A DNA stretch of 33,510 bases from an uncultured Victivallales bacterium (GTDB lineage: Bacteria > Verrucomicrobiota > Kiritimatiellia > UBA8416). A program made the translations under genes and the position numbers. Every line of letters starts with the position of its first letter. The first letter of the stretch is position 1. Below, piece after piece: positions 19,312 through 33,269 of the stretch. The stretch is taken from the NCBI GenBank assembly GCA_964523995.1, contig CAZGBW010000002.1:1-33510 (forward strand), written 5' to 3'. Under the pieces are notes generated by a model, which worked only from the letters and a program-made list of their open reading frames with translations, made no database searches and was not told the origin of the DNA.

Positions 19312-19316
19312 TCATT

Positions 19317-19368
19317 TCTGTCTTCAGTCTTCTGTCTTCAGTCTGTAGTCTTCAGTCTTCTGTCTTCC
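19317..19368. repeat. 14-bp tandem repeat (TCTGTCTTCAGTCT), about 3.7 copies
   Basis: The units are 19317-19330, 19331-19344, 19345-19358 (GTAGTCTTCAGTCT) and a partial unit at 19359-19368. The TCTGTCTTC motif also occurs inside element copies 1 and 3. The repeat overlaps the last codons of the upstream gene. Confidence 0.85.
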
Positions 19369-20713: not shown

Positions 20714-22914
20714 GCCTGTCTCGAGAACAACGCCGACATCCATCGGCGTGAGCGCGGACCGCCTTTGCCGACGACCGCTCCGGATACCGTCGGAGGAACC
20801 GGCGGTGCCTGATGGTACTGGTGATAAGCATACCCGCCATAGCGGCGGTAATAGTAATAATTGGCCATGGATTTCAAATCGACCCCGTTCATCAGCACCC
20901 CTAGGCAGGGGACACCGCTTTCCGAGATCCGTTTCATCGCCAGCGCCGCTCCCAGGCTGTGCGTGACCCCGTAACGCACGATAAAGAGCACACCGCCCGT
21001 ATGATTGAGCAGGATCAGGGAATCGCTAACCCCCAGGATCGGCGGTGCATCAATAACGATCTGGTCATAAGCCGATTTCAGGCTCTCGATCAAACCGCTG
21101 AAGGCCTGGCTGCCCAGCAGCTCGGCTGGCCGGGACGGCACCTGACCGGAGGCCAGCACATCAAGCCGCGGTATACAAGGCGGCTGCAATGCATCCTTCC
21201 AGGCAACGTTCCCGGCGAGGACCTCGGCAAGCCCGTGTTCCGTCATTGGCCCCGTGAAGATCTTCTTGAAAGAAGGCCGGCGCAGGTCCGCTCCCAACAG
21301 CAGCGTCCGCCGGTCGTCCTGTGCAAAGCTGATGGCCAGATTCGTCGAGACCAGGGACTTTCCCTCCGATGGATGCGCACTGGTGACCAGAATGACTCTT
21401 GCCTTCTGAATGGACGGATTAATCTTCATGATCGCCCGCAGGGTGCGCAACGACTCGGACACTTCGCCCGCGGGTCTCAGATGCGTGTCCATCCCCCGTT
21501 CGCGATCGTTCTGGCCTGCGATAAACGGCAGCGACGCGAGAACAGGAACCCCCAGGGCACGCTCCACCTCCTCGTTACGGCGGAAGCGGTGATCCGCATA
21601 GTAGAAGAGGAAGATGACCGCTATCCCGCTCGCGACCCCGACAAGGGCACCCCGCAGCAGGAGTTGGCCGCGTCGGGGGCGATAGGGATGGCCTGCCGGA
21701 CGGGCCTCCTCCGCCAGACGAATGACCTCCGTCGGCAGTGTTTCGGCGATACTCGCCTCTTTCATCCGGGCAATCACCGATTCATAAATGTCCTGATCCG
21801 CCTCCACGTTGCGTTTCAGATCGTTATAAGCCACCAAGGCCCGTGCCAGCGTGAACGCTTCCTGCTCCTGGTCCTGCAACGCCTTGGCCAGGTTCTTCTC
21901 GCGGGCCTGCAGCGTCTCGAACCGGCTGAAGAGCGCATACGAGGCCACGTTGAACGCATCCTCGAACTCCCTTGTCAAATGCTGCTCCTGCTGGAGCGCC
22001 TCCTGCAAGTCGGGGTGATCCGACTTGTAACGCTCGCGCAAACGGAAGACCTGCTGCTGCTGCAACCGCAGGCGCGTCAGCGTCTCGGACAGCACCGGAT
22101 CCTCCAGTTGAGAGGCAAAGCCTTCCAGGGGGATCTTCTCCTTGATCTGTTTATCGATGGCCTCCCATTTGCTTTGCGCATCAATGCGCTCGGTCTGCGC
22201 GGAGGTCAGGGCGGCATTCAGCGACTTGAGTTTCGCGATCACGATGTTCTGGTCTTCCTCCAGGGAAACCGATTGCGAATCCTCGCGGTATTTCTGAAGC
22301 GCAAGCATTCCCTTCTCCAGCTTTTCGCGGTACTCGACGGATCGTTCACGCAGCCACTCGACGGCCTGCATCGACGCGGTCATCCGGTTGTCCAGTTCCT
22401 GCTGTATGTACGAGCGGGCCATGGCATTGGCCAATTCACTGGCAATCTCCGCTTTCGGATGCTCTGCCGAAATGTTGATCAGGCGGGTCTTGTCAACCGC
22501 GGTGATTGTGACCAGCGAAAGTGCTGCCGCCGCTTTCGCCGAAAGACCTGAAGATCCAGGGAAAAAATCCCCCCGATCCGCCAGTCCGCTTTGCGTCAAC
22601 GCCTTTTCCATCATCTGCCGGCTGTACAGGGTGTTGATGACCGTGTTGAAATATTCCAGATTGCGGACAGTGACCGCCACCACATCCTGGTAATTCAACA
22701 ACCGGGGCTGGCTTGCCTCCACCATCAGGACCGCCGTGCTCCGGTAATAGGGAACGGCATCCATCAGCCGCCACGCCGTAAAAAGGAACACAACGGCGGC
22801 GGCAGCCAGTCCGAACCAGAACCGTTCAAGCACAATCGCGGTCACTTCATGCCAGTCCGGAATCCGCGAGACCGCCTCCTCCCTGTCCGTCTGCGATAAA
22901 TAAGGTGTTTTCAT
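20710..22914 (-). CDS. Polysaccharide co-polymerase / tyrosine autokinase (Wzc/GumC/EpsB type, PCP-2a)
   Basis: 734 aa. It has an N-terminal TM segment, a long coiled-coil periplasmic region and a second TM segment. The kinase domain has Walker A SAHPSEGKS and Walker B-like IVIDAPPILGVSD, followed by a C-terminal Tyr cluster ANYYYYRRYGGYAYHQYH. Confidence 0.85.
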   Translation of the reverse strand: MKTPYLSQTDREEAVSRIPDWHEVTAIVLERFWFGLAAAAVVFLFTAWRLMDAVPYYRSTAVLMVEASQPRLLNYQDVVAVTVRNLEYFNTVINTLYSRQMMEKALTQSGLADRGDFFPGSSGLSAKAAAALSLVTITAVDKTRLINISAEHPKAEIASELANAMARSYIQQELDNRMTASMQAVEWLRERSVEYREKLEKGMLALQKYREDSQSVSLEEDQNIVIAKLKSLNAALTSAQTERIDAQSKWEAIDKQIKEKIPLEGFASQLEDPVLSETLTRLRLQQQQVFRLRERYKSDHPDLQEALQQEQHLTREFEDAFNVASYALFSRFETLQAREKNLAKALQDQEQEAFTLARALVAYNDLKRNVEADQDIYESVIARMKEASIAETLPTEVIRLAEEARPAGHPYRPRRGQLLLRGALVGVASGIAVIFLFYYADHRFRRNEEVERALGVPVLASLPFIAGQNDRERGMDTHLRPAGEVSESLRTLRAIMKINPSIQKARVILVTSAHPSEGKSLVSTNLAISFAQDDRRTLLLGADLRRPSFKKIFTGPMTEHGLAEVLAGNVAWKDALQPPCIPRLDVLASGQVPSRPAELLGSQAFSGLIESLKSAYDQIVIDAPPILGVSDSLILLNHTGGVLFIVRYGVTHSLGAALAMKRISESGVPCLGVLMNGVDLKSMANYYYYRRYGGYAYHQYHQAPPVPPTVSGAVVGKGGPRSRRWMSALFSRQA

Positions 22915-22938
22915 ACGAGGAAACGCTTTCTGCCGATG

Positions 22939-23592
22939 CTAAAACAGCGTTTGCGGCACCGTGATGACATCGTTCGGCTCCAGGCGGGTGTCCGGCTCTT
23001 TCCCGTCGATAATACGGGAAACCTGCACGCGCATTTTCTTTTGCCGCCCCTCGACGCTGCGGGTGATCAGCACGCGGTTGATGCTGGCAAGGTCGGTGAA
23101 TCCGCCTGCCTGGCCGATCGCCTGTAGCAACGTCATGGGCTTATCAAAGGGGATCGCATGTACACCCGGCGCCTTCACCTCCCCCAGGATGACCACCTGG
23201 GAAGACTGCGAGGAGACCACGCGGATCATCACCCGCGGGTTGACCAGATAGCGCTTGGACAGCAAATCCGTGATCCGGGCCTCGGCCTCCGCCGCGGTAT
23301 ATCCGGATATCTCGACCACCCCGAAAAGAGGATGCCGGATCGCCCCGGAAGCCTCCAGCCGGAAGGTTCCGGAAAGGTCCGGTTCCCGGAAAACATCAAT
23401 CGAAACCTGATCGCCCGCGCGCAGGATGTACCCTTCCGCCAGCCCCGCCTGCACCTCCGGCGAAACGGCAACCCTCGCCCCCCTGCATCCCGCCAAGGAC
23501 AACGGCAGCAAACACAGGCATAACACACCGGCAAGAACGGCTGCAAACCGGAACGTAAACGACAACAATCTGACTTCAGTAATCGCGCTCAA
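22939..23592 (-). CDS. Outer-membrane polysaccharide export lipoprotein (short Wza/GumB type)
   Basis: 217 aa with the lipobox LSLAGC. The Poly_export-like segment is YILRAGDQVSIDVFREPDLSGTFRLEASGAIRHPLFGVVEISGYTAAEAE, and the SLBB-like segment is VVILGEVKAPGVHAIP. The start is TTG (23592 or a nearby TTG) and is uncertain. Confidence 0.8.
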   Translation of the reverse strand: MSAITEVRLLSFTFRFAAVLAGVLCLCLLPLSLAGCRGARVAVSPEVQAGLAEGYILRAGDQVSIDVFREPDLSGTFRLEASGAIRHPLFGVVEISGYTAAEAEARITDLLSKRYLVNPRVMIRVVSSQSSQVVILGEVKAPGVHAIPFDKPMTLLQAIGQAGGFTDLASINRVLITRSVEGRQKKMRVQVSRIIDGKEPDTRLEPNDVITVPQTLF

Positions 23593-23603
23593 ATCAACCC
23601 TGC

Positions 23604-24911
23604 TCAGTAATTCCAGCTTGCACGCAATCCCCAGCGTTCGGAGGAATAGGATGCCCGGTCGCGCTCTTCCTCGCTGCCGCTGCGATTGCCCCTGTTCTCA
23701 AAGTACGAATACGACACCCCGACGGAAAAATTATGTTTCAGCCACCAATCCAGGCCCAGGCTGTAACCCCAATACTCGTCACCGCGCCCGTCATACACCT
23801 CGGACGCCCGCCCGTCATCGATATCCACCGGGCGACCTTCCGTCCCATAGTAATCCACCTGACCATAGAACAGCGATGCCTGCCCCCTCAGCCGCTCGCT
23901 GAAAAGACGGCGGGTAACCCCGGCCGTGGCCCGCTGATCCACCGTCGCGAAACCGGCATCCGTGATCGAGGGGCGGATATCCGCCATCAGGTCACCCGTG
24001 AATGTCGTCAGCCCGAAGGGTGTGGTCTCCGCATTCAGGGAGGCGATGTAGTGGTTCACGTCGTCCAGATCGTCGTCCACCGGACGGCGCCAGCGATAGC
24101 CAATCCGCCCGGAAACACTGGTCTTGACACTTTGCCGGCCGCGCATCCCGACGGAGACATCGTAGAAATCGGCGTCCCCGCTGCGCCCGTGTACCCCTTG
24201 CAGGTCATCGCGCCCGATGCCAAGCTGCAGGTACCCGTCGCTCTTCGGCGTGACACGGCGATACAGCCTTCCACCGCCGTAGTAACGCCAATAGTTGATA
24301 TACCGGTCTTCCTCGAAGTCATGAAACGAGACGCCGCCGACCAACCCCGCGCTGGACTTGGTCGAGAGCCGGTGCTCCAGATCCAGGTCGCCGGTGTAAT
24401 CCTGCTTCACGATACGCGCCCCGACGAGCGTATCCACATTCTCCAGCCGGCGGTAACCGGCACGCGCGTGTATGCTGCTCTTTCCCGTCCGGTACATGCC
24501 GCCGGCCGCCAGCATGTAGCTCGGCTTCTCATCCACGCGATCCGAACTGCGATACAGGGGGATGATCAGTCCGGCATCCGTGTACAGGTGATTGCGCCCC
24601 GGATGACCGTAGACCAGAAGAAGACCGGGCACCGCATAGACGGTGGTCGCATTCTCCGACGGGCCGCTGTTGAGCGTTGCATTATCCTCGTAGGCGGAAC
24701 TGACGGTGATGCGGGGCAGCAGCAGCCAATGGGACTGCAGCGGGATATAGAACGGCGCAAAGGCGGCATCCTCGCTCTCGACATAGGTGGCCGCATCAAC
24801 ACCCCGCGTATAGAACCCGGACGCGTAATAGTCCGTGCCGGCCGACGCCTGTAGCGCAACCCCGAACACAAGCGCCATCAGGCGCGAAACACCAGTTATT
24901 CCATTCCTCAT
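23604..24911 (-). CDS. Outer-membrane beta-barrel protein associated with polysaccharide export
   Basis: 435 aa with a signal peptide (...FGVALQASA). It shows an alternating amphipathic, Tyr/Gly/Arg/Asp-rich strand pattern and a C-terminal aromatic end ...LRASWNY. There is an ATGA overlap with the upstream gene. Confidence 0.6.
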   Translation of the reverse strand: MRNGITGVSRLMALVFGVALQASAGTDYYASGFYTRGVDAATYVESEDAAFAPFYIPLQSHWLLLPRITVSSAYEDNATLNSGPSENATTVYAVPGLLLVYGHPGRNHLYTDAGLIIPLYRSSDRVDEKPSYMLAAGGMYRTGKSSIHARAGYRRLENVDTLVGARIVKQDYTGDLDLEHRLSTKSSAGLVGGVSFHDFEEDRYINYWRYYGGGRLYRRVTPKSDGYLQLGIGRDDLQGVHGRSGDADFYDVSVGMRGRQSVKTSVSGRIGYRWRRPVDDDLDDVNHYIASLNAETTPFGLTTFTGDLMADIRPSITDAGFATVDQRATAGVTRRLFSERLRGQASLFYGQVDYYGTEGRPVDIDDGRASEVYDGRGDEYWGYSLGLDWWLKHNFSVGVSYSYFENRGNRSGSEEERDRASYSSERWGLRASWNY

Positions 24912-26815
24912 CGTGAAGTCTCCTGAAACCGAAACGCCTTGATCATTTCCACTTCATCCTCGCGATAGGCCTTGCCATCCGCGTGGAAAACATCGTGCTG
25001 CCACAAATCCGGATCCTTTTCGGAACGGAACTGCGGCTGCTGGATCCATGTCTGTGTCTTGCCTTTGACCAGCCCCCGGTTGAACCACCCGATGCGGCGG
25101 ACGGCAAAGAGGGGCAGCATCTTCTCGAACGTACAGTCCCGCTGGCGCATCAGCCAGGACGTGCACACGATCGGGCGGTCAAACCGCTCCAGCATCAGGA
25201 GCAGCGGCTCAACGGTCTCGGCACTGTCATAGCTCTGGAACGTGACGAGGTCGGAGCGCTCGTGGATCCGTGCGCCGATCGCGCTGCCGAACCGGCCCCA
25301 GGTGGCAACCGCCAGCGGCTGTCTTGGATTGACATCACGGGCCCAGTTGAAGGCTTGGCTCATCAGCGGCAGCGAGTTCTCCCCGAGCCCCCCGTCCCCC
25401 ACCCGGTTATACAGATCCCAGAACAGGATCCGATCATCGCGCTTGAATTCCCCGATCAGGTCACGCACATACTTCTCAAGACTCGGCCAGGACGAACGGT
25501 CCTGGACATCCTTTGCACCGGGACCGGGGGTCCAGCGCGCATTGTGCTCGCCCGGCACGGGTTCCGGCTGCGGCCCCGTCACCGGCTCGATACCCGCGAT
25601 ATTCCGATCATCGAACAGCACCGGGGTCACCTTCAGGCCATGCCGGTGCGCCAGCTCGAGAAAGCGCCGGAAACGCTCCATGAACCCGTCCGGATCGGAT
25701 TTCCAAACCACGTATTGGAGCTGCACGCGCACCGATGTGTAACCGGCATCGTGCGCCCAGCCCAGTTCCTCGGAAATAACATCCTCATCGAAGGTATCCA
25801 CCTGCCACATTTCCGTCGAATTCACGGCGTAGCGAGGCACATAATTGAAACCCTTGACAGGCCCGATGCGGTTATACCAGTCCCAGATACGCCGCCGGTC
25901 CCAGCGCCCGCCGCGACCCGCTGGACCATCGGGGGAAAGCTGAGGCCGCACGTTGGCGACGGGAACCGGACGGAACGACGGGCTGACATCCGCCACCGTC
26001 ATATCGCCGCCGATAAAGGTGATGGTCGATCCATTCCCCCCGATGTAACGCGACAATCCCTGCCGGTCGAACCGCAACGGGTCATCAAAGAACTGCTCAA
26101 GATCCTGGAAGAACACGTCGCAGACCTCGAACGCCCGCAACGGGGAATCGTTCAACGCCGCGTCGCGCCGCACTTCCGCACCGCCGCCGGGCAACCGTGC
26201 CATCACGGCGCTGCCCTTGTCCGCCAGGGCGACTGCGGTTCCGTTCGCCGGGATCAACTGCTGTTCAAACGCCTCATTGAACACCGCCCACGTTCCATCC
26301 GCCTGCTGGGAGACGGAAAACGTCCCGCCCCCCGCCCGGATCTCGCCTGCATCCATGCTGATGCGGATATCCAGCGAGGGAACCGGGGGTCCGGCATGAA
26401 TCAGGATCCTTCCCTTTAAAAGGTTGATGTATATCCGCCGGACCAGATCCTCCTCGCGCTGTGGAAGCCCATCGGATGCATGCCGTAGCTGCAGGAACGT
26501 CAACTCCGAATCCGGTGCCACGCAAAGCGCCGCCCCCGGCGAAAGGACAATACACAACTGCCCGTCATGTCCGGTCACGAGGCGGGCCGTTTCCCCGACG
26601 CTGCTGTTCTCGTAAACCTCAAACCGCTTCTGGCGTCCTTCATGCACGGGACCGTCACTGAGATAGACACCGGCCGTGCCGACCTTGTTGACCACAATGG
26701 CCTCCCCGCGGCCAGGCTCCGCCCCCGGCACGGGGCTCTCCATCAAACAGCCTGCCAGCAGGATGGCGCATGCCATGCGCCCCCCCCGTGAAACCAGCCT
26801 TGTATTGTTCGTCAT
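24908..26815 (-). CDS. Lipoprotein with FecR-like N-terminal region and clan GH-A (cellulase/'1,4-beta-xylanase'-like) TIM-barrel domain
   Basis: 635 aa with the lipobox ILLAGC. C-terminal motifs are KGFNYVPRYAVNSTEMW, GYTSVRVQL, HGLKVTPVLFDD, GEHNARWTPGPG, FWDLYNR, IVCTSW and VFHADGKAYREDEVEMIK. Confidence 0.55.
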   Translation of the reverse strand: MTNNTRLVSRGGRMACAILLAGCLMESPVPGAEPGRGEAIVVNKVGTAGVYLSDGPVHEGRQKRFEVYENSSVGETARLVTGHDGQLCIVLSPGAALCVAPDSELTFLQLRHASDGLPQREEDLVRRIYINLLKGRILIHAGPPVPSLDIRISMDAGEIRAGGGTFSVSQQADGTWAVFNEAFEQQLIPANGTAVALADKGSAVMARLPGGGAEVRRDAALNDSPLRAFEVCDVFFQDLEQFFDDPLRFDRQGLSRYIGGNGSTITFIGGDMTVADVSPSFRPVPVANVRPQLSPDGPAGRGGRWDRRRIWDWYNRIGPVKGFNYVPRYAVNSTEMWQVDTFDEDVISEELGWAHDAGYTSVRVQLQYVVWKSDPDGFMERFRRFLELAHRHGLKVTPVLFDDRNIAGIEPVTGPQPEPVPGEHNARWTPGPGAKDVQDRSSWPSLEKYVRDLIGEFKRDDRILFWDLYNRVGDGGLGENSLPLMSQAFNWARDVNPRQPLAVATWGRFGSAIGARIHERSDLVTFQSYDSAETVEPLLLMLERFDRPIVCTSWLMRQRDCTFEKMLPLFAVRRIGWFNRGLVKGKTQTWIQQPQFRSEKDPDLWQHDVFHADGKAYREDEVEMIKAFRFQETSR

Positions 26816-26854: not shown

Positions 26855-27319
26855 ATGTCAAACCAGGAACACACGACTTGGAAACATAACGGGACCGCCA
26901 GCAATACCATTGTTTCCCTTCTGCATCAAGGCGATACCGTTAAATTCCGTGCTGGCGGCCCCAGCATGCATCCGGTGATCCGACCGGGGGAAACCGTCCT
27001 GGTCCGCCCGGTCGGCAAAGGGGATCTCCGGCCCGGTGCCATCCTGCTTTTCCAGTATCACGGGCGCCTGGTCCTGCACCGGCTGGTTCGGAAATCCAAA
27101 ACAGAGGGCCACCTGCTGCTGGCTGGTGACGCCGTGATCGAGGGCACGGAACACCCGGAGATAAACGGCATCATCGGCGTTGCTACCACCGTCTATCGCC
27201 ACGGCACCGCAATCCGCCTGGATACGCCGCTCATGCGCCTCCGCGGACGGCTTCTCCAACGGTGGCGTCCTCTCCGGTGCTGGCTTTTGCGGGTGCGGCA
27301 TGCTGGATCGACGGCCTGA
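26855..27319 (+). CDS. S24/S26-clan serine peptidase domain protein (SipW/ER-type-like), no membrane anchor
   Basis: 154 aa and the only plus-strand gene accepted. It has a GGPSMHPVIRPGETVLV nucleophile box (G-x-S-M-x-P) and a downstream LVLHRLV box (H-R). The N-terminus is hydrophilic. The gene converges on the HprK-like gene. Confidence 0.7.
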   Translation: MSNQEHTTWKHNGTASNTIVSLLHQGDTVKFRAGGPSMHPVIRPGETVLVRPVGKGDLRPGAILLFQYHGRLVLHRLVRKSKTEGHLLLAGDAVIEGTEHPEINGIIGVATTVYRHGTAIRLDTPLMRLRGRLLQRWRPLRCWLLRVRHAGSTA

Positions 27320-27366: not shown

Positions 27367-28242
27367 TCACGCCTGTTCCTTTCGCCAGGTCTCCAATGCC
27401 GACACGGACGACGGCAGCGGCCTGAAATGAAATCGGTTGACCGGAACGGAGCGGGAGATATCATTCAGGGCTTCCAGGGAGGCGTCTGCCCACGCCGACG
27501 CAAACCAGGGAATCCCGGCCATTGGCAACAACGACTGCCATGCATCGCCCGGCGGCAACCGCTCTAGGGACTCGAACGGGGCCTGCGAGAGCAGGAAAAT
27601 CCCGGCCAGCGGAACCTCATCGGCCTCGGCGAAACGACCCGACCCATGCCACGGCGTACCGGCCACGTGCAACCGCCCGTCGCGCCGGAACAGCACCACC
27701 CGGTCATCATTCAATACACGCCATCCCGCCTGATGACAAAGCGCCGACAGCGTCGTTTTCCCGGCACCGCTACGCCCGGCGAACACCAGGCCAAGACCGC
27801 CGCAAACCACGGTGGCCGCATGTAGCAGCACTCCACCGCAACGCCCTAGCAATCCCCATGTGAGAACTTGATCCAAGGGGTAACGCAACGGGGCATCCGC
27901 CGGATCGCCATCCACGCTAAGCGTCGCCCGATCCAGCCCGCCAAGTAACCGGCAGGTGACCCGCGGGCGCTCGCGGCCCGAAAACCCCGTGCAAAACAGC
28001 CAGTCGTCACCATCCTGCCAGACAGCCCAGTTCCGACCCGCCGAAAACCATGGCGAGGTTGCCGGCATCTGACGTGACCCGCGGACAAGCTGCACGGGCA
28101 GCTCGGCCAAGGGACGATACGCCCCCTTGACCTCGCGGTCCGCGAAAAAGCCGCCGTACGCCCAGTCGTCATACCGCACAGGAATGCCCTCATCCCCGTT
28201 CAGCAGAAAACGCACCGGACCCACTGTCAGATGGTTGATCAT
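27367..28242 (-). CDS. HPr kinase/phosphorylase-related P-loop protein (HprK-related kinase)
   Basis: 291 aa counted from ATG 28242, which lies 5 nt after the small ORF's stop. The track start GTG 28311 would overlap the small ORF. LLHAATVVCGGLGLVFAGRSGAGKTTLSALCHQAGWRVLNDDRVVL matches the HprK C-terminal domain pattern (H-x-x-x-V...G-x-S-G-x-G-K-[ST]...DD). Confidence 0.7.
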   Translation of the reverse strand: MINHLTVGPVRFLLNGDEGIPVRYDDWAYGGFFADREVKGAYRPLAELPVQLVRGSRQMPATSPWFSAGRNWAVWQDGDDWLFCTGFSGRERPRVTCRLLGGLDRATLSVDGDPADAPLRYPLDQVLTWGLLGRCGGVLLHAATVVCGGLGLVFAGRSGAGKTTLSALCHQAGWRVLNDDRVVLFRRDGRLHVAGTPWHGSGRFAEADEVPLAGIFLLSQAPFESLERLPPGDAWQSLLPMAGIPWFASAWADASLEALNDISRSVPVNRFHFRPLPSSVSALETWRKEQA

Positions 28243-28247
28243 GGTAT

Positions 28248-28430
28248 TCAGGAGCCTGCCTGCCCGATTCCAGGGAATGGATCCGTACACTCGGTTCCAT
28301 TCAACTTGCACCCCGCCGAAAGAGTTTCCTCGAGCGCCAGATCCACCCGCTGGACCTCCGGCTTGATATAGGGACGCCGCCCCTCCTCGACAGCGAACTC
28401 CGGGCCATGTTGTTCCAGTGTTCTCATCAT
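28248..28430 (-). CDS. Putative RiPP precursor peptide (60 aa): MMRTLEQHGPEFAVEEGRRPYIKPEVQRVDLALEETLSAGCKLNGTECTDPFPGIGQAGS
   Basis: ATG-ATG at 28430/28427 begins 4 nt after the rSAM TAA, with a GAGGG Shine-Dalgarno-like box 7 nt upstream. The TGA at 28248-28250 is followed 5 nt later by the kinase ATG. The peptide has an acidic leader with a YIKP motif and a Cys-containing C-terminal core. Confidence 0.6.
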   Translation of the reverse strand: MMRTLEQHGPEFAVEEGRRPYIKPEVQRVDLALEETLSAGCKLNGTECTDPFPGIGQAGS

Positions 28431-28434
28431 CAGT

Positions 28435-29559
28435 TTACCCTCTTTCCTCGATTGCAACCACCGCCTCATAACGCAGACGGGTTGTCTTCCGCATGTAATC
28501 AGACTCGGTTTCTTCGTCCCCGGTCTCCACCTCGTTGAATGCCGGGCAATGCGTGCAGGCACCCCGCATAGCCCCGTTGAAACTTGTATCGGACCGGGTG
28601 GGCTTCCGGTCCCGTATCCGGGCAAGCTCATCGCGCCAGAGATCCTGGAATGCGCGACCCTGGCCCGGATAGCGGTAAAGCCGCGTCATGAGACAGGGGG
28701 AAAGGAATCCATACGGATCGGCATAAAACGACGTGGTTCCCGCCCCGCACGGGTAGAGCCGGTCCGTGTCGGGACTGCCCCGTCCGCTGCGGACAGATCG
28801 CACCCATTTCCCGCGCTGCTCCGGAACGGCCATGTCCAGGCGCACGGCCTCCTCCGGGGTCACCCGCAAGTCAACAGGCGATGGTGAGGGTTGCGGCCCA
28901 CCCGCAATGCAAGGGAACACGGCGGCATCGAAGCGAAAGGGGACGCCTAGACCGGACGCCTGCAACGCCATGGCCTCCAGCTCGTGCTGATTCAGGGTCA
29001 TCAGCATGGTCTTGAGTCCGACCCGGATGCCGCCGTCGTGCAGACGCCGGATCCCCTCCCACGCCCGCGCATGCGAACCCGGTACGCGCGTAACGTTCTC
29101 ATAGGTCGCGGCGGTCGCCCCGTAGATGCTGATTTCCACCTTCCGGGGCGGTAATTCACGGAAGAGCGCCAGAATCCGATCCGTCACCAGAATCCCGTCG
29201 CAGAATACCGTCACCACCATCCCCAGCTCGCAGGCGTGGCGGTAGACATCCGGAAAATCCGCTCGCATCATCGGGTCACCACCGGTGATCAGCAAGTAGA
29301 GACAGCCGGCATCCGCCCACTCGTCAAGGGACCGCATCACGGCGGCGGTGTCGCATTCGCGTTCGCGATTCGCCACTTGATGGTCCTGGCTTCCAAGATA
29401 GCAATGCCGGCAACGCAGGTTGCAGCGGCTGGTCAATTCGAGCACGGCGGAAAGCGGAATGCGCGCCTTCGCCGCCCGGGTGCGCAGGCCGACCGTCCAG
29501 CCTTGCGATTCCCCGGTAGCCGCCGGGCCGCGCTCCTGTATTGATGTCTCGCTATTCAT
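28435..29559 (-). CDS. Radical SAM enzyme with SPASM/twitch-like C-terminal Cys cluster
   Basis: 374 aa counted from ATG 29559, in an 8-nt overlap (ATGAATAG) with the PqqD-like stop. It has the CNLRCRHC (CxxxCxxC) cluster and a GGDP motif. C-terminal Cys motifs are YPCGAGTTSFYADPYGFLSPC and GACTHCPAF. Confidence 0.85.
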   Translation of the reverse strand: MNSETSIQERGPAATGESQGWTVGLRTRAAKARIPLSAVLELTSRCNLRCRHCYLGSQDHQVANRERECDTAAVMRSLDEWADAGCLYLLITGGDPMMRADFPDVYRHACELGMVVTVFCDGILVTDRILALFRELPPRKVEISIYGATAATYENVTRVPGSHARAWEGIRRLHDGGIRVGLKTMLMTLNQHELEAMALQASGLGVPFRFDAAVFPCIAGGPQPSPSPVDLRVTPEEAVRLDMAVPEQRGKWVRSVRSGRGSPDTDRLYPCGAGTTSFYADPYGFLSPCLMTRLYRYPGQGRAFQDLWRDELARIRDRKPTRSDTSFNGAMRGACTHCPAFNEVETGDEETESDYMRKTTRLRYEAVVAIEERG

Positions 29560-29866
29560 CGTCTGTTCCCGCCACTGCCGCCTCAATCAATCCCTTCTCC
29601 TCAAGACGCTTCACAAAGTCAACGCAGTCCCCCATCGCGGCCTCATCGTCCACCATGAACCGACGGCTGACTTCACGGCTGGCGTCTTCCAATGTCTTCC
29701 CTGCGGAAATACACTCCCAGATCACCGCCCCCGTCTCGTTCAAGGGAAATACCGCATTGGCACGCGCCAGATCGCCCGTGATCGGCACCAGCAGCCGGTC
29801 TTCGCCAATCCGGCGGAGAACCATCCGGCCCGATACCTTGAAACGCATTTTTTCCGGCCCCGTCAT
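29552..29866 (-). CDS. PqqD-family protein (RiPP recognition element / peptide chaperone)
   Basis: About 104 aa. The sequence RIGEDRLLVPITG...VFPLNETGAVIWECISAGKTLEDASREVSRRFMVDDEAAMGDCVDFVKRLEEKGLIE fits the PqqD winged-helix pattern. I prefer ATG 29866, which has AAGGA 8 nt upstream. ATG 29875 and TTG 29887 are also possible. Confidence 0.75.
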   Translation of the reverse strand: MTGPEKMRFKVSGRMVLRRIGEDRLLVPITGDLARANAVFPLNETGAVIWECISAGKTLEDASREVSRRFMVDDEAAMGDCVDFVKRLEEKGLIEAAVAGTDDE

Positions 29867-29888: not shown

Positions 29889-32800
29889 TCACCACCGCTC
29901 CCACTTCCCTGACGTCATATTGATGAACCAGCGAGGATTCCTCGCCCCGTTGTACCACAGCCATGCCTCCGGCGAGGCGCGATAGAGGAAGGGATACGTG
30001 GTGCTGCCCGTCCACAACCACCCCATATCCTGCGTATACATCCAGACACTCTGCGCCGTTCCACCGGCCGGAACGAAAATGAAGCCGTGCTTGTTATGCC
30101 AGACCCAGCCGTCCGGCCCCATCGGGACATAATCCCCGAACCACGTCAGCCGCCGCCACCCGCCGACCAGGGACTGATAACCGGAATCCCAGCCCGAAGG
30201 CGCCGGGACCGCGGCCTGGGTGACGGTGAAGATCCGGGTGAGACCCCCGCCGGTCACCGAAAGGGATCCATGACGGACCGCGCCGCTGTTGGTCTCGATC
30301 CGGTATGTCACCGTCCCGCTATTGATGCCGGAGGAACCACCCGTTATCGTGATCCAAGGGGATTGCGAGGTTGCGGTCCAAGGGACAATCGCCGTGACCC
30401 CGACGGTCTGGCCGGTCACGGACGCACTCGAATGCTCCCGGTTCGTCGGGCTGAGCGCAAGATAACCATGAAGGGTGACAAAATCGCGGATGGCCGCGAG
30501 GCTGTAGACCGGATCCGCCAGTTCGGAAACCGTGAACCGCTCCCAGCGCCAGTGCGCGATCATATTGATCCATGCGGGGGGAACATTCCCTTCGCCGCCC
30601 CGGAGCTTCAGCGCGGGATCCCCCAGCAGGTTATACGTCCGGATCGCATCGGCGTGTAACCCACCCAGGACACCGAACGAACGACGGGTCTGCTGCAGCA
30701 GCGGACCGATGGTGTCCACCCGCTCGTCGGCGTGAATGCGGTGGAACTCGTGACTGAATTGACCCGCAAAACTGTTCCAGGACAGCCCCGCCGGCGCATA
30801 GACCGCCAACGCACCGCCATTCGGCTGCAGGACCAGCGCTTCCGCCAGGCACCGCTGCGTCGCGAGATAGATATCGAACCGCCCAATCAGGCAGGTCATG
30901 GATGCAAACAGCAGCAGCGGTGAATTCGTCATGCCGACGACATCGTCATAATGCAGGAGATTCTCATCCGCCAACTGCCGGTAGCTGCCATGACCGGTAT
31001 AGTGGATCATCCCGGAACCGTTGGTGATGGCGGCTCGGATATCGGCACGAACCCCGGCCACCGTGTTGGAGTCCAGCGAGGTGTACGCAAGCGTGTAGCG
31101 CTTTTTCGCCTCGGTGCCCATTTCGAGATTGCTGGCGGTAAAATCACCACCGCCATCCGCATTGTCAGCCGCGAGCAGCGCCATCGCATGCCTTGGCCGC
31201 GCAGCCGCCGCCTCATAGGCCTTCAACTTGGTGATATAGGCATTGAACTGCGTGACACTCTGCACCGGCAGGCGCCCGACCGCCAGGTCCGGTACCCCAT
31301 CAGCACCGGCAACATCCCCGAACAGCGAGTCTGATGGCCTTAACGTGGCCGAATCGGATCCCAGCAACGATGGCAGGTAACTGGTCAGCGCCGTCTGGGC
31401 ATTGAAATAGTCATAATGCCCCCAGCCGCCCAGAACCACCATCCAGGGAGCCATGCCCCACTGCTGACGGGCATACACCAGGAAATCCCGAATCGCCTCG
31501 GGTGTCGCCAAGCCGCCGCCGAACTGGTCGCAAATGTCCTCAAATACCGCGACGGCGCTGCGGAGACCCAGACTCGCGCGGTAGTCCGCCAGGGCCTGCG
31601 CCGGGACTTTGAACGCCCGCGGGGCGATGACCAGATAATCCACGGCATTCGTGGTAGCGCGCATCCAGCCGCCGTTACCTCCGGATTCCGCCTCCACCGC
31701 AGGAATGCCCGACCTCTCGCGCAACGCCCACGCGGTTCCCGCCGCGACGGGCCAGCTCCAGCCCGAAGGCAAAACACCCGCCGCGTCCGCGATCCAGACC
31801 GGATCAAGAGGATCGGTCACATCCAGGACGAGCGGATCGGTGAACAGGGCGGAGGAAAGACGGGCATGCCCGCCATCCGTGGCCTTGAGAATCGGCACCC
31901 GCGGCGCATAGTACTGCTGGTAGGCAACCTCGAAACCATCCACCACGATCGTACTGCTGATCACGCCATCCTGCAGGATTCCCTTGATCTTGAGTTGGTT
32001 TCCCGAGGGCAGCACGGTGCCCGCCGCCGCCGTGAATACGGCCGAGACGTCTGCCTTCCCGTCAAACAAAACCTCGCCGAGCAGCGTGTTGTTGAAGCGG
32101 ACTTCCGCCTTGTGACCGAGACCCGACGGGGTTTCGTTCCATCCGGTCAGGCGTACCGTGAACGTCACGCTTCCCGACGCATAACCCCCCAGCGGAACCT
32201 CGAACGTTCGCTCGCCGGTACTCGCGTTGCCGCTGTCGATATGCGTCCAGAAGTAGAGGTCGTCACGCAGTACCCCGCTGTGCTCGACCATGCTGACGAG
32301 ATCCTGCTCGAAATCCTGCCTTCCGAAAAACGTCTGGTTCGTCGGCACGGCAACGGATGCTGGCGACACGCGCTGCATGTGCATGCCCGCCCCCGGCTCG
32401 ATCCAGAAGACATTCCTGCGGGTGTAGCGGTTCGTGGCACCCCATCCGTAAAACAGGATGCGCTCAAGGGGGGCATCCACCAGATACGCCACCGGCTCGT
32501 TCCCGCAGCGCATCGCCAGAAGCGCATCGCGAGCCTTCACACCGACCTCGGCAGGCGTCAGCCCCAATCCGGCGGCTACCGAAGCAAACGACACGGAATA
32601 GATGTCGTTCGAGATCACCGGCAGCTTGACCGCCGGGCCTGTCACCGACACTCCCTTTGATGATGATTTCGGTCGCTCGGACTGCTCTGGCGAAAGGACA
32701 GCCACCGGTTCTTCCGCGTCCTCCTCAAACCGCACCGTCCAAACCCCCAGCGTCAAGGTTCGTCCATCACCACGCAACTCTTCCAGGCGATAGGTCGCCT

Positions 32801-33119
32801 CCGTTCCCCTCTTGCGCGTTCCGTCCACCAGGGTATAGGTGCTGGAAGGACTCGTGATATCCGCCGGGATGGTTCCATCATGCAACGGAACTTCACCCTC
32901 AGCGTCCACGCGGAACACCCGGTATCCAGCCGTACCGAACTCCGAGCCCGTCGTCCAGACCAGCTCGGCCTGCCCCCCCGTCCAGCGGCCCGAGACGCTC
33001 TCGATATCCGCCGATAAGGGATAGCCGGCCAACGCCGCCAGGGCACCCCCGATCAGGAGCACCCCGGCTAGGCCTGCTGCCCGCCGCCACGGAGGTCGGA
33101 TTGTTCGTCTCGTCTTCAT
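29889..33119 (-). CDS. Secreted peptidase C25 (gingipain-type) domain protein with BACON-like domain and Trp-rich C-terminal module
   Basis: 1076 aa with ATG at 33119 and a signal/anchor segment (AGLAGVLLIGGALAALAG). C25 hallmarks are VDYLVIAPRAF, MVVLGGWGHYDYF, SDSLFGDV...VPDLAVGRLPV, the catalytic-His box IHYTGHGS and the catalytic-Cys box LLLFASMTCLIGRFD. The BACON-like stretch is PWTATSQSPWITITGGSSGINSGTVTYRIETNSGAVRHGSLSV. Confidence 0.75.
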   Translation of the reverse strand: MKTRRTIRPPWRRAAGLAGVLLIGGALAALAGYPLSADIESVSGRWTGGQAELVWTTGSEFGTAGYRVFRVDAEGEVPLHDGTIPADITSPSSTYTLVDGTRKRGTEATYRLEELRGDGRTLTLGVWTVRFEEDAEEPVAVLSPEQSERPKSSSKGVSVTGPAVKLPVISNDIYSVSFASVAAGLGLTPAEVGVKARDALLAMRCGNEPVAYLVDAPLERILFYGWGATNRYTRRNVFWIEPGAGMHMQRVSPASVAVPTNQTFFGRQDFEQDLVSMVEHSGVLRDDLYFWTHIDSGNASTGERTFEVPLGGYASGSVTFTVRLTGWNETPSGLGHKAEVRFNNTLLGEVLFDGKADVSAVFTAAAGTVLPSGNQLKIKGILQDGVISSTIVVDGFEVAYQQYYAPRVPILKATDGGHARLSSALFTDPLVLDVTDPLDPVWIADAAGVLPSGWSWPVAAGTAWALRERSGIPAVEAESGGNGGWMRATTNAVDYLVIAPRAFKVPAQALADYRASLGLRSAVAVFEDICDQFGGGLATPEAIRDFLVYARQQWGMAPWMVVLGGWGHYDYFNAQTALTSYLPSLLGSDSATLRPSDSLFGDVAGADGVPDLAVGRLPVQSVTQFNAYITKLKAYEAAAARPRHAMALLAADNADGGGDFTASNLEMGTEAKKRYTLAYTSLDSNTVAGVRADIRAAITNGSGMIHYTGHGSYRQLADENLLHYDDVVGMTNSPLLLFASMTCLIGRFDIYLATQRCLAEALVLQPNGGALAVYAPAGLSWNSFAGQFSHEFHRIHADERVDTIGPLLQQTRRSFGVLGGLHADAIRTYNLLGDPALKLRGGEGNVPPAWINMIAHWRWERFTVSELADPVYSLAAIRDFVTLHGYLALSPTNREHSSASVTGQTVGVTAIVPWTATSQSPWITITGGSSGINSGTVTYRIETNSGAVRHGSLSVTGGGLTRIFTVTQAAVPAPSGWDSGYQSLVGGWRRLTWFGDYVPMGPDGWVWHNKHGFIFVPAGGTAQSVWMYTQDMGWLWTGSTTYPFLYRASPEAWLWYNGARNPRWFINMTSGKWERW

Positions 33120-33191: not shown

Positions 33192-33269
33192 TCAAGGCTG
33201 ACTGACCACCATCCTAATCCTAATCGTAATCCTAATCCTGACTGCGTCGTCAAGGCTGACTGACCACCA
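33192..33269. repeat. Exact 20-bp direct duplication flanking a hexamer microsatellite
   Basis: TCAAGGCTGACTGACCACCA occurs at 33192-33211 and again at 33250-33269. Between the copies are TCCTAA TCCTAA TCGTAA TCCTAA TCCTGA. The second copy encodes the last 5 codons plus the stop (VVSQP*) of the upstream gene. Confidence 0.85.

Follow-up and report, generated by a model that had tools for sequence, protein, structure and literature searches.

The SynChlorMet cassette is represented by the NCBIfam models TIGR04248–TIGR04251 (PqqD-like ScmD, HprK-like ScmC, and the radical-SAM (rSAM)/SPASM proteins ScmE and ScmF), and reportedly no precursor is known for it. Our literature search found no paper mentioning this cassette. 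In phosphorylated lasso peptide systems (paeninodin PadeK, ThcoK, SyanK, pseudomycoidin PsmK/PsmN, and BsfK), a PqqD-type B1 protein is accompanied by an HprK-like kinase, and PadeK, ThcoK, and PsmK phosphorylate the C-terminal Ser of the precursors. A His-Lys-Asp-Asp set is essential in the lasso kinases that phosphorylate this Ser of the linear precursor (PMC9266682; PMC6993621). Some lasso kinases phosphorylate an internal Ser, as BsfK does with Ser3. Addition of hexose to the phospho-Ser requires the lasso 'N' gene, whose product belongs to PF14907. In thioether RiPP systems (subtilosin/AlbA, SKF/SkfB, and ranthipeptides), the rSAM enzyme has a fused N-terminal RRE and a C-terminal auxiliary-cluster domain, and the Cys-containing core is rich in Gly, Ser, Ala, and Thr; SkfB is a thioether-forming enzyme.

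We analyzed a 33,510-nt stretch of contig CAZGBW010000002.1 of an uncultured Victivallales bacterium (the window), in which an earlier note had described four packed minus-strand genes as an RiPP-type cassette (Table 1). Its structural statements hold base for base. The stop codon of the PqqD-like gene and the start codon of the rSAM gene lie within an 8-nt overlap (ATGAATAG), ACTG separates the rSAM TAA from the ATG of the 60-aa ORF, the described GAGGG box is present as AGAGGG a short way 5′ of this ATG, and ATACC separates the TGA of the small ORF from the ATG of the HprK-like gene. The limits 27367–29866 are right for the four genes but not for the functional unit, which is larger and includes the genes of an S24/S26-type peptidase and a PorU-like C25 protease; the stop codon of the latter is 22 nt upstream of the PqqD start. 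The gene order of the cassette is repeated in more than 20 independent contigs, and wherever a locus was long enough for a verdict, the rSAM and precursor genes occurred together (at least five phyla, with differing gene orders). PqqD-like genes and a conserved small ORF adjoin rSAM homologues down to ca. 28% identity, the opposite of what the earlier note had named as a refutation. The recurrence of the gene order together with selection on the small ORF is far beyond chance.

Table 1 Features of the cassette and its neighbors in the window.
Feature	Position	Strand	Remarks
PorU-like C25 cysteine peptidase	29889–33119	−	1076 aa; PF01364, E 2e-71
PqqD-like ORF	29552–29866	−	TAG at 29554–29552
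rSAM ORF	28435–29559	−	ATG at 29559–29557; stop TAA
CxxxCxxC radical-SAM cluster motif	29401–29424	−	CNLRCRHC (C46, C50, C53); invariant in 16/16 orthologues
Auxiliary-cluster region	28546–28749	−	Four conserved Cys: C271, C289, C338 in 16/16, C335 in 13/16 orthologues
Precursor peptide gene	28248–28430	−	60 aa, MMRTLEQHGPEFAVEEGRRPYIKPEVQRVDLALEETLSAGCKLNGTECTDPFPGIGQAGS; kept in every syntenic locus
Predicted leader, aa 1–37	28320–28430	−	Lasso-type YxxPxV at aa 21–26 (28353–28370); Thr at −2
Predicted core, aa 38–60	28251–28319	−	SAGCKLNGTECTDPFPGIGQAGS; Gly-Cys-Lys (28305–28313), second Cys, Ser60 (28251–28253)
ScmC-family HprK-like P-loop kinase	27367–28242	−	291 aa; precomputed Pfam PF27840 (ScmC)
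Kinase H141	27820–27822	−	
Kinase P-loop	27751–27777	−	GRSGAGKTT
Kinase D179/D180	27703–27708	−	
Soluble S24/S26-clan peptidase	26855–27319	+	154 aa; convergent with kinase gene; PF00717, E 1.6e-5
Peptidase Ser37, His75, Asp92	26963–26965, 27077–27079, 27128–27130	+	
PVC-lineage-specific downstream block	18418–26815	−	Domain assignments
FecR-domain protein	24908–26815	−	635 aa
BBP2/EpsL-like porin	23604–24911	−	
Wza-like exporter	22939–23592	−	
Wzc-like kinase	20710–22914	−	
Wzy/O-antigen-ligase-like protein	19352–20743	−	
ABC-2 permease	18418–19311	−	

The small ORF encodes a genuine precursor. Its product matched no Pfam or NCBIfam model, and a profile search yielded a family of 121 peptide clusters (≤50% identity; some positional counts rest on 120), with one gene copy per locus. 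Compared with the relative L001, the gene showed pS 0.72 (synonymous sites saturated) and pN 0.23 (0.13 over codons 18–60); it is under strong purifying selection, with dN far below dS. Y..P was found in 119/121 peptides, and among 120 peptides the Tyr-to-Cys spacing was 20 residues in 118, position −12 was L/I/V in 115, and position −2 was Thr in 62 and Val in 40. The leader is of the lasso type: positions −12 and −2 fit the pattern of lasso leaders, from which the register is taken (PMC10368454), and phosphorylated lasso precursors have the motif, as YxxPxL, at the same distance, again with Thr or Val at −2. Cleavage after aa 37 is predicted by analogy with this register. Cys-Lys is present in all 121 peptides and Gly precedes this Cys in 107, while the predicted cores contain two (63 peptides) or three (57 peptides) Cys, are 19–40 aa long, and vary in sequence between the anchor residues. 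The last residue is Ser in 111/121 and Thr in 7/121 (together 118/121, 98%). Since 96 of the 99 peptides whose C terminus lies outside the profile alignment also end in Ser/Thr (ca. 19% expected), this terminus is not a product of the search profile. The peptide of the Anaerolineae relative L007, whose locus has the kinase, ends in ...GTMP, a Paenibacillus peptide ('cluster a') has no C-terminal Ser, and one peptide without C-terminal Ser/Thr sits in a locus with fragmented genes.

The 104-aa PqqD-like product is a PqqD-family recognition protein (RRE; PF05402, E 7e-13, above the gathering score), whose top NCBIfam matches, under cut-off, are lasso B1-type PqqD chaperones. The 374-aa rSAM enzyme matched PF04055 (E 2.5e-21). 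Its nearest solved structures in the PDB are PqqE (6c8v, E 4e-13) and SkfB (6efn, E 3e-10 over aa 29–292), SkfB giving the longest alignment. All NCBIfam rSAM families were missed by far: the best-scoring matches, the heme enzymes AhbD and NirJ, cover the N-terminal core alone, and the sub-cut-off matches include the sactisynthases StsB, AlbA, and SkfB, plus MftC. The motifs CNLRCRHC, GGDP, PCGAG...SPC (C271, C289), and GACTHC (C335, C338) are all present as described earlier. The earlier label SPASM needs a correction: the C-terminal auxiliary Cys domain is not a canonical SPASM domain, with only four auxiliary Cys conserved in the lineage and no match to PF13186 in the rSAM protein. The region reads SFNGAMRGACTHC in the PVC-type enzymes; the distant orthologues L005, L007, L031, and L035 have two extra Cys just upstream (CxxCx5–6CxxC), which is nearer to the canonical SPASM motif. 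The domain is a degenerate SPASM (twitch-like) one, and because of this degeneracy and the missing PF13186 match the chemistry is not readable from homology. The auxiliary-cluster domain and the Cys-containing core, rich in Gly, Ser, Ala, and Thr, resemble those of the thioether RiPPs. In contrast to these, the enzyme of the window is under all family cut-offs and its chemistry is a prediction, peptide recognition falls to a free-standing PqqD protein, and the genes include a kinase and two kinds of peptidase that thioether RiPP clusters are not known to have.

The HprK-like protein consists of an N-terminal all-beta domain (about aa 1–120) and a kinase core, in which H141, K162, D179, and D180 were invariant in 22 sequences. 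Its profile (A1) matched HprK/P structures (PDB 2qmh/1jb1) with an E value of 5e-7, spanning the His, P-loop, and DDR. The AlphaFold2 model (pLDDT 94) gave PEPCK and HprK/P as Foldseek matches. Alignment with hhalign to a genuine lasso-cluster kinase, located in a complete lasso cluster with a precursor ending in ...LTWS, gave 96% probability; the stretch aligned with HprK/P or lasso kinases is only ca. 55–60 residues of the catalytic core. These matches, together with PF05402, PF04055, and the PqqE and SkfB structures, support the RiPP-type reading. In the relative L047, a PF14907 nucleotidyltransferase gene directly follows the kinase gene, a feature that the cassette occasionally shares with phosphorylated lasso clusters. 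The His-Lys-Asp-Asp set and the conserved C-terminal Ser are further features shared with those clusters. Unlike them, the window contains no gene for a B2 transglutaminase-like protease or an Asn-synthetase-like cyclase, as the earlier note had said, positions 7–9 of the core lack an acidic residue, and there are an rSAM enzyme, invariant Cys residues, and an S24/S26-type peptidase.

With SynChlorMet the cassette shares its component types (HprK-like P-loop protein, PqqD homologue, and PqqE-like rSAM), the kinase falls in Pfam ScmC (PF27840), and ScmC, ScmD, ScmE, and ScmF are among the weak NCBIfam matches. However, the proteins of the window miss all four equivalog models by far (24 vs 125, 18 vs 100, 78 vs 400, and 66 vs 400 bits), SynChlorMet has two rSAM enzymes and the window cassette one, and the latter adds the C25 protease and the S24/S26 peptidase as constant partners and has an identified precursor family. 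The 'HPr-rel-A system' mentioned in the earlier note does exist as NCBIfam families (TIGR04352 and TIGR04353), but the proteins studied here do not belong to them, the kinase scoring 37 bits against a cut-off of 200 and the PqqD protein giving no match to TIGR04353. Our literature searches found no paper describing the cassette and no report of a characterized class that pairs an rSAM enzyme with an HprK homologue, in agreement with the earlier claim; a purely bioinformatic precedent exists in SynChlorMet and Pfam ScmC.

The C25 protein has an N-terminal signal-like segment, a C25 domain (aa 495–839), and a BACON domain (aa 913–969). In the PDB it came closest to PorU (6za2); the GHG...TC His/Cys dyad aligns and is intact, and the similarity reaches into the region N-terminal of the C25 domain. 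It scored 174 bits, under the cut-off of 420, with the NCBIfam T9SS sortase PorU. The gene adjoins surface-polysaccharide genes, as in PorU systems. In contrast to PorU, this protein type is found on contigs of PVC, Acidobacteriota, Nitrospirota, and Chloroflexota and not in Bacteroidota, and no T9SS genes were seen. Its gene is next to the cassette in PVC, Thermoanaerobaculales, Anaerolineae, Nitrospira, Vicinamibacteria, and metagenome contigs, and in relatives the protein is frequently part of a fusion with adhesin-like repeats that run to thousands of residues. The S24/S26-type peptidase gene lies beside the cassette in PVC loci and directly after the kinase gene, on the same strand, in L029, L030, and L048. 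GxSMxP, HR, and GD, found likewise in SipW, Sec11 (ER/archaeal-type signal peptidases), and SodX, were invariant in 12 orthologues from four phyla (PVC, Thermodesulfovibrionales, Acidobacteriota, and Paenibacillus), and we take the catalytic type to be Ser-His-Asp. Matches to TIGR02228 and TIGR02754 were weak and under both cut-offs; the score with NCBIfam archaeal-type signal peptidase I, 29 bits, is under cut-off. Differences from SipW, Sec11, and SodX are the length of 154 aa, a conserved basic C-terminal helix, and the lack of a membrane anchor, no hydrophobic anchor being visible in the sequence. SodX, the NiSOD maturation protease, sets a precedent for propeptide trimming by a cytoplasmic member of the family. 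The peptidase is the best candidate for leader removal. In the lasso register, Leu/Val/Met precedes the predicted site of cleavage, unlike the small −1 residue usual for signal-peptidase-type enzymes, and cleavage two residues before the Cys would place Leu at −1 in 15/121 peptides; with such −1 residues, both the assignment of the leader peptidase and the cleavage site are weak.

The position beside EPS export genes, pointed out earlier, is real in the PVC lineage, where the whole block is joined to a Wza/Wzc/Wzy locus and the order of the downstream genes is kept in L002–L004, L022, L023, and L025–L028, but it does not extend beyond this lineage: L005 and L030, which are non-PVC cassettes, lack the downstream block and have no EPS genes around them. 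The kinase accompanies the precursor also at loci without EPS genes.

We propose that the four genes form the core of a real, widely conserved, experimentally uncharacterized RiPP pathway, a candidate new class, and put the probability of the proposed pathway as a whole at about 0.6. This pathway would probably cross-link a small Cys-containing peptide and phosphorylate its last serine. The PqqD-family protein would bind the leader of the 60-aa precursor (YxxP[LIV] at −17 to −12, Thr/Val at −2) and hand the core to the rSAM enzyme, which in this lineage has a single radical-SAM cluster and, most likely, just one auxiliary cluster. The enzyme would act on the core at, or by way of, the invariant Cys (+4) together with the second or third Cys, most likely forming thioether cross-links (sacti- or ranthi-type). 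The ScmC-family kinase would then use ATP to place a side-chain phosphate on the invariant Ser at the C terminus, replaced by Thr in 6% of relatives, and the neighboring soluble peptidase may remove the leader. Counting against this pathway, the conserved core contains no dedicated exporter, a simple thioether model does not account for the invariant Lys after the Cys, the peptide of L007 has a different end in spite of the kinase, and internal Ser phosphorylation of the BsfK type is known.

The alignment of the ScmC-like protein to peptide kinases over the catalytic core only, PEPCK, a small-molecule kinase, as the top of the whole-protein fold search, and weak NCBIfam matches of relatives to small-molecule kinases would also fit an ATP-dependent rSAM scaffold or chaperone, or a kinase/phosphorylase acting on a non-peptide substrate such as a sugar or lipid-linked intermediate, as would the L007 and 'cluster a' peptides. 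We regard this as unlikely, since 98% of the peptides end in Ser/Thr independently of the search profile, the four catalytic residues of peptide kinases are all invariant, and the protein accompanies the peptide where EPS genes are lacking. Chance adjacency of an rSAM gene to a decayed lasso cluster that has lost its B2 protease and cyclase is highly improbable: the leader register, the B1-like PqqD, and the lasso-type kinase agree with it, but the constant pairing of rSAM and peptide, the purifying selection, the absence of Asn-synthetase and transglutaminase genes from the window, and a core that has invariant Cys but lacks acidic residues at 7–9 do not.

A peptide-derived redox cofactor like PQQ or mycofactocin, with Gly-Cys-Lys and the C-terminal Gly-Ser providing its atoms, is suggested by PqqD together with a PqqE/MftC-like rSAM enzyme (PqqE being the best PDB match, and MftC among the few NCBIfam models aligned past the core, aa 34–311) and by the conserved C-terminal dipeptide, which resembles that of MftA. 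The cores, variable in length and in sequence between the anchors, are unlike cofactor precursors, no cofactor-dependent dehydrogenase was found nearby, and the cassette is constantly accompanied by a secreted protease, making such a product very unlikely. In another reading, the peptide would be a surface-assembly adaptor rather than a free natural product: after loss of the leader, its N-terminal amine would be free and its C-terminal Ser phosphorylated, the phosphate would be glycosylated or linked to the polysaccharide of the neighboring locus, and the PorU-like C25 enzyme, as a sortase, would attach surface proteins to the peptide. The C25 protein is nearer to PorU than to gingipains over aa 229–846, and PorU-type sortases anchor their cargo on a surface polysaccharide through its seryl-containing linking sugar (PMC7468200; PMC13086638). 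Hexosylation of lasso phospho-Ser by a PF14907 enzyme, the rigid joining of PVC cassettes to the Wza/Wzc/Wzy and glycosyltransferase locus, conservation at both ends of the peptide, and the missing exporter point the same way. This reading has analogy as its sole basis, and the lack of EPS genes around L005 and L030, the occurrence of PF14907 in one cassette only, the missed PorU model, and the failure to identify T9SS components or CTD-type cargo within the window leave it rather improbable.

In the preferred RiPP pathway, the modified peptide would act at the cell envelope, functionally tied to the secreted PorU-like C25 protease and, in PVC bacteria, also to the Wza/Wzc/Wzy polysaccharide export machinery.

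The four minus-strand ORFs that the earlier note had proposed as a cassette were recovered at the expected positions (see table), and their spacing was as claimed: the genes for the PqqD-like protein and the radical SAM (rSAM) enzyme overlap by 8 nt (ATGAATAG), the 60-aa ORF, with AGAGGG upstream, follows the rSAM TAA after a gap of 4 nt, and 5 nt separate it from the ATG of the HprK-like kinase gene. A search of species-representative genomes with the rSAM sequence retrieved loci from PVC-group, Verrucomicrobiota, and Kiritimatiellia MAGs, in which the order is C25 peptidase, PqqD, rSAM, small ORF, kinase, S24-like peptidase (opposite strand), and a 635-aa FecR-domain protein. The same block was found on metagenome contigs by kinase-first and peptide-first look-ups. 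In the PVC-type loci, it runs on into genes for a BBP2/EpsL-like porin, Wza, Wzc, Wzy, and an ABC-2 permease. Thermoanaerobaculales loci have giant C25, rSAM, peptide, PqqD, and kinase, in that order, and Nitrospira has SdrD-repeat protein, C25, PqqD, rSAM, peptide, kinase, and S24; cassette components were also found in Anaerolineae, Vicinamibacteria, further Acidobacteriota, and Thiolapillus. The co-occurrence of rSAM, PqqD, kinase, and small ORF in other genomes, which had been suggested as a check, thus recurs across PVC, Acidobacteriota, Nitrospira, and Anaerolineae loci, and neither the window nor any related cassette has more than one rSAM gene.

Positions of the cassette genes and of other features in the window and in related loci
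Sequence	Coordinates	Strand	Feature
Window	17899-18294	-	PD-(D/E)XK-superfamily gene
Window	24908-26815	-	635-aa FecR-domain protein
Window	26855-27319	+	S24/S26-type peptidase, 154 aa
Window	27367-28242	-	HprK-like kinase (P0001)
Window	28248-28430	-	Small ORF, 60 aa
Window	28435-29559	-	rSAM enzyme
Window	29552-29866	-	PqqD-like protein
Window	29889-33119	-	C25 (PorU-like) protease, 1076 aa
Window	29889-30200	-	Trp-rich C-terminal ~100 aa of the C25 protein
Window	33192-33267		Duplication before the C25 gene
Window	33192-33210		Copy of GGTGGTCAGTCAGCCTTGA
Window	33211-33239		AGGATT-like tandem repeats
Window	33249-33267		Copy of GGTGGTCAGTCAGCCTTGA
L025	7229-7441		Extra 70-aa called gene
L043	34-7623		Second RiPP-like set of P. 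violae
L047	6176-7261		PF14907 nucleotidyltransferase gene

Around the Nitrospira and Thermoanaerobaculales cassettes, neither EPS genes nor an exporter were found, and the flanking genes are unrelated. Therefore, the conserved core consists of C25, PqqD, rSAM, peptide, and kinase, often with S24. The position beside EPS export genes holds for the window and the PVC-type loci and not for these other cassettes; the fusion with an EPS locus is conserved in the PVC lineage only. The EPS locus of the window resembles XrtA/PEP-CTERM-associated EPS loci only at a level below the cut-offs. Scanning genome contigs with the kinase alignment gave at least 17 loci among the matches listed; the P-loop pattern is very generic, and these loci served as distant comparators.

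Several other features of the surrounding DNA were observed. All PVC-type loci encode the 635-aa protein, its gene being placed between those of the cassette and of the porin. FecR is its N-terminal domain, there may be a lipobox (LAGC) at about residue 20, and its C-terminal ~400 aa gave no informative Pfam or PDB match. The polysaccharide-exporter genes for the ABC-2 permease and for the Wzt-like ATPase are separated by a gene of the PD-(D/E)XK superfamily (PF13366, E 3e-40). The ORF upstream of the C25 gene runs off the end of the window. Its final 19 nt, stop codon included (GGTGGTCAGTCAGCCTTGA), recur 57 nt downstream in the intergenic stretch that precedes the C25 gene, and AGGATT-like tandem repeats separate the two copies. 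A Verrucomicrobia-type relative (L025) has an extra called gene of 70 aa between C25 and PqqD, which is absent from the window (22-nt gap).

A word-indexed search with the 60-aa peptide gave 12 relatives and was superseded by an exhaustive search with a profile of 12 sequences against 1.84 billion representatives, which gave 122 matches, 121 of them peptides of 45–113 aa. Every cassette locus has the small ORF, always as a single copy, and purifying selection on it is strong. The leader is poor in Cys and carries YxxP in 119 of the 121 peptides, and the distance from its Tyr to the invariant Cys is 20 residues in 118/120. All 121 peptides contain Cys-Lys, preceded by Gly in 107. Beyond Gly-Cys-Lys, the core varies and has many Gly, Ser, Ala, Thr, and Pro residues; the median length of the whole core is 25 aa, and it contains two (63 peptides) or three (57 peptides) Cys. 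The last residue is Ser in 111/121 and Thr in 7/121. Among the 99 peptides whose C-terminus falls outside the aligned stretch, 96 end in Ser or Thr, compared with ~19% expected from the core composition, so that the profile does not account for the C-terminal Ser/Thr. Of the three exceptions, one (P0192) comes from a locus with visibly fragmented genes, probably owing to frameshifts. The contig of a Thr-ending peptide (P0186) has 753 bp, not enough for a kinase gene to be visible. Lasso precursors carry YxxPxL at −17 to −12 and Thr, rarely Ile or Val, at −2 (PMC10368454). When this register was applied to the family, position −12 was L/I/V in 115/120 and position −2 was T (62 peptides) or V (40 peptides). 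The shared YxxP register and the occupancy of −12 and −2 indicate a lasso-type leader in the same register, which places Gly-Cys-Lys at +3 to +5; the core of the window peptide then reads SAGCKLNGTEC....

The window kinase (P0001) and all 120 relatives listed carry the precomputed annotation PF27840, called ScmC in the neighbourhood tables. Matches of the kinase to the NCBIfam and Pfam models of HprK-related kinases A and B, ScmC, and Hpr_kinase_C were weak, with 18.2 bits for PF07475 (gathering score, 33.3). The kinase shares the catalytic His, P-loop Lys, and Asp-Asp with bona fide HprK/P, but its N-terminal domain differs and the full-length HprK/P model of NCBIfam (TIGR00679) gave no match. 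A profile of 22 kinase sequences aligned with Lactobacillus HprK/P (2qmh/1jb1; E 5e-7) at the His, the GxSGxGKS P-loop, and DDR, and H141, K162, D179, and D180 are invariant among these 22 members of the ScmC family. In the structure model (pLDDT 94), the fold search retrieved PEPCK and HprK/P. The window proteins are not members of the HPr-rel-A system mentioned in the earlier note: the kinase scored 37.4 bits against the TIGR04352 cut-off of 200, and the PqqD-like protein had no match to TIGR04353 (PqqD_rel_X; cut-off, 35 bits) at E ≤ 0.01.

The HprK-like kinases PadeK, ThcoK, SyanK, and PsmK of lasso clusters phosphorylate the C-terminal Ser at its side-chain hydroxyl. This Ser is "extremely conserved" in such clusters, the substrate shown for PadeK is the linear precursor, and a His-Lys-Asp-Asp motif is essential (PMC9266682; PMC6993621). 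By contrast, an internal Ser is phosphorylated by BsfK (PMC10368454), and the peptide of the Anaerolineae relative ends in ...GTMP. The ScmC-family profile aligned with 96% probability to the kinase of a complete Paenibacillus violae lasso cluster (L043, the control), which comprises an Asn synthetase, a 44-aa precursor ending in LTWS, the kinase, PqqD, a transglutaminase-like B2 protein, and a PF14907 gene. The lasso 'N' gene, needed to attach hexose to phospho-Ser (PMC6993621), belongs to PF14907, and in one cassette relative (L047) a PF14907 nucleotidyltransferase gene (E 4e-35) directly follows the ScmC kinase gene. The invariant His-Lys-Asp-Asp, the alignment with the lasso kinase, the PF14907 gene of L047, and the 98% occurrence of C-terminal Ser/Thr make phosphorylation of the C-terminal Ser/Thr of the peptide the best-supported single step, and we infer that the kinase carries it out.

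The PqqD (RRE) identity of the recognition protein was borne out by PF05402 (E 7e-13); its best sub-family matches in NCBIfam were lasso-peptide B1 chaperones, below the cut-off. All the motifs read in the rSAM enzyme (CNLRCRHC, GGDP, PCGAG...SPC, and GACTHC) were present. PF04055 matched above the gathering score (E 2.5e-21), and C46/C50/C53 of CxxxCxxC are invariant. In an alignment of 16 orthologues, C271, C289, C335, and C338 were conserved together with CxxxCxxC; two Cys just upstream of the CxxC pair are kept in distant orthologues and missing from the PVC-type enzymes. Of the seven-Cys SPASM motif (CX9-15GX4C ... CX2CX5CX3C ... C), the window enzyme keeps only CX12GX4C and CX2C, and it did not match the Pfam SPASM model PF13186; the distant orthologues retain more of the motif. 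Thus the radical SAM part of the earlier rSAM/SPASM assignment stands, whereas the auxiliary domain is SPASM-derived but degenerate rather than canonical, probably holding one auxiliary cluster.

None of the curated NCBIfam families was reached by the rSAM enzyme. Its top scores were for AhbD and NirJ, in alignments limited to the N-terminal core; those with MftC and TIGR04133 extend further. The identities of heme enzyme (AhbD/NirJ) and sulfatase maturase were both rejected, since their matches were confined to the N-terminal core and far under the cut-offs and since the rSAM gene always accompanies PqqD and the peptide. The nearest solved structures were PqqE and SkfB, a twitch enzyme that forms thioethers, the latter aligned over residues 29–292. 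From the invariant Cys of the peptides and the similarity of the enzyme to SkfB, AlbA, and StsB, the rSAM enzyme would act on the invariant Cys, most likely forming a thioether from Cys-S to C-alpha, C-beta, or C-gamma. Loci of Selenomonas, Propionispira, and relatives (L008–L021) have two tandem rSAM paralogues ~24% identical to the window enzyme and no kinase match, and probably represent a different rSAM system.

The 154-aa protein encoded convergently with the kinase gene has an S24/S26-clan domain. Orthologues from four phyla (12 sequences) all keep GxSMxP, HR, and GD, with S37, H75, and D92 in place, the Ser-His-Asp arrangement known from signal peptidases of the ER/archaeal type (for example, SipW and Sec11). 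Although these motifs are shared with ER/archaeal signal peptidase I (S26B), the score for TIGR02228 was 29.4 bits (cut-off, 51.85), and no hydrophobic segment that could serve as a membrane anchor is visible in the sequence. In Thermodesulfovibrionales (L029), Nitrospira (L030), and a metagenome contig (L048), the S24-like gene follows the kinase gene on the same strand. We regard this protein as the best candidate for the leader peptidase, with an uncertain cleavage site. 'AxA-like' cleavage two residues before the Cys suits most peptides but was rejected, as Leu stands at −1 in 15/121; the lasso register places Leu, Val, or Met at −1.

The C25 protein scored 241.7 bits with PF01364 (threshold, 23) and keeps the GHG...TC dyad. 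It is closer to PorU of the T9SS than to gingipains; the C25 domain is shared, but the score for NF033707 was 174.4 bits against a cut-off of 420. In relatives, C25 forms the C-terminal part of surface proteins of 2,000–3,900 aa with adhesin-like repeats, whereas the window version has 1076 aa. The first genes of L022, L023, and L025 encode proteins of 3,300–3,900 aa with C25 at the C-terminus and CLIPPER, SdrD_B, and GEVED repeats. The window protein ends, after BACON, in a Trp-rich tail (...WVWHNKHGFIF...WMYTQDMGWLWTG...WLWYNG...WFINMTSGKWERW), for which no family match was found.

Lasso clusters share with the cassette the leader register (YxxPxL and Thr at −2), B1-like recognition, the kinase, and sometimes N. 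However, B2 and the Asn-synthetase-like cyclase (C), both present in the P. violae control, are absent as the earlier note had stated, the chosen long ORFs across the window giving no PF13471 or PF00733 match. Moreover, lasso cores have Asp/Glu at position 7–9 for the ring, whereas the first acidic residue of the window core is at +10. The cassette therefore lies outside the lasso family: it has neither B2 nor C, nor the acidic ring residue. SynChlorMet cassettes have two paralogous rSAM/SPASM genes, and the window proteins scored 24.1 bits for ScmC (TIGR04249; cut-off, 125), 17.6 for ScmD (TIGR04248; cut-off, 100), and 77.5 and 66.3 for ScmE and ScmF (TIGR04250 and TIGR04251; cut-off, 400). 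With all four cut-offs missed and one rSAM gene instead of two, they are not SynChlorMet equivalogs. Distant loci with the order kinase, PqqD, and rSAM (L031 and L037) were also rejected as true SynChlorMet, reaching only 34–36 bits against the cut-off of 125. Nor is the cassette a member of the HPr-rel-A system, the canonical SPASM subfamily, or the PorU family, and its formal home is only the recent Pfam ScmC family. It would work like a hybrid of phosphorylated lasso-peptide tailoring and rSAM thioether RiPPs. No description of the cassette was found among the roughly 8.3 million papers and preprints covered, in agreement with the earlier statement that no characterised class pairs an rSAM enzyme with an HprK homologue; nothing relevant was found on SynChlorMet cassettes or on C25 peptidases with radical SAM and RiPP or gingipain, and a 2025 RRE survey does not mention kinases.

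Directly beside its canonical paeninodin-type lasso cluster, P. violae (NZ_JAWCUD010000008.1), a cultured organism, has a second RiPP-like set in the order HlyD, a 573-aa protein without a Pfam match, a 68-aa peptide, ScmC-like kinase, PqqD, S24-like peptidase, ABC exporter, and PF14907. This set has no rSAM gene; its S24-like peptidase is 28% identical to that of the window, and its peptide lacks a C-terminal Ser but, placed in the lasso register, shows YIRPMV and has Thr at −2. The trio of kinase, PqqD, and S24 therefore looks like a portable leader-handling module.

Building on the observed gene structures, homologies, conserved catalytic residues, peptide anatomy, and synteny, we infer the following steps, in order of falling confidence. 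The small ORF product would be the substrate of the cassette; its YxxP leader would be bound by PqqD; the C-terminal Ser/Thr would be phosphorylated by the kinase; the rSAM enzyme would modify the invariant Cys, most likely forming thioethers; the S24/S26-type protein would remove the leader; and the product would work at the envelope with the C25 protein and, in PVC bacteria, also with the EPS machinery. The constant pairing with a secreted PorU-like protease and, in PVC bacteria, with an EPS export locus suggests a function in the construction or regulation of the cell surface, not in antibiosis. A more specific reading, to which we give about one chance in eight, is that the cross-linked, C-terminally phosphorylated peptide is a dedicated cell-envelope adaptor for the PorU-like C25 enzyme and the EPS machinery. 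The phospho-Ser might be glycosylated or joined to the exported polysaccharide, and the new N-terminus or another group might be the acceptor to which the C25 enzyme attaches giant adhesin-like surface proteins. The analogy comes from T9SS cargo, which is anchored to a seryl-sugar of A-LPS (PMC7468200; PMC13086638).

The cassette is a candidate for a new RiPP class and is not rare: the precursor clusters at 50% identity number at least 121, and there are >700 kinase relatives; they span PVC bacteria, Acidobacteriota, Nitrospirota, Chloroflexota, and Proteobacteria. A concrete precursor family is now available for ScmC-type cassettes, and its anchor residues, Gly-Cys-Lys and the C-terminal Ser, make them directly testable by co-expression and mass spectrometry. 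If the model holds, the class would join a lasso-type leader, recognition protein, and Ser-kinase to rSAM chemistry and a signal-peptidase-type leader protease. A role at the cell surface would be unusual for a RiPP, and the adaptor, if real, would amount to a peptide-based equivalent of T9SS/A-LPS anchoring outside the Bacteroidota that uses RiPP enzymes.
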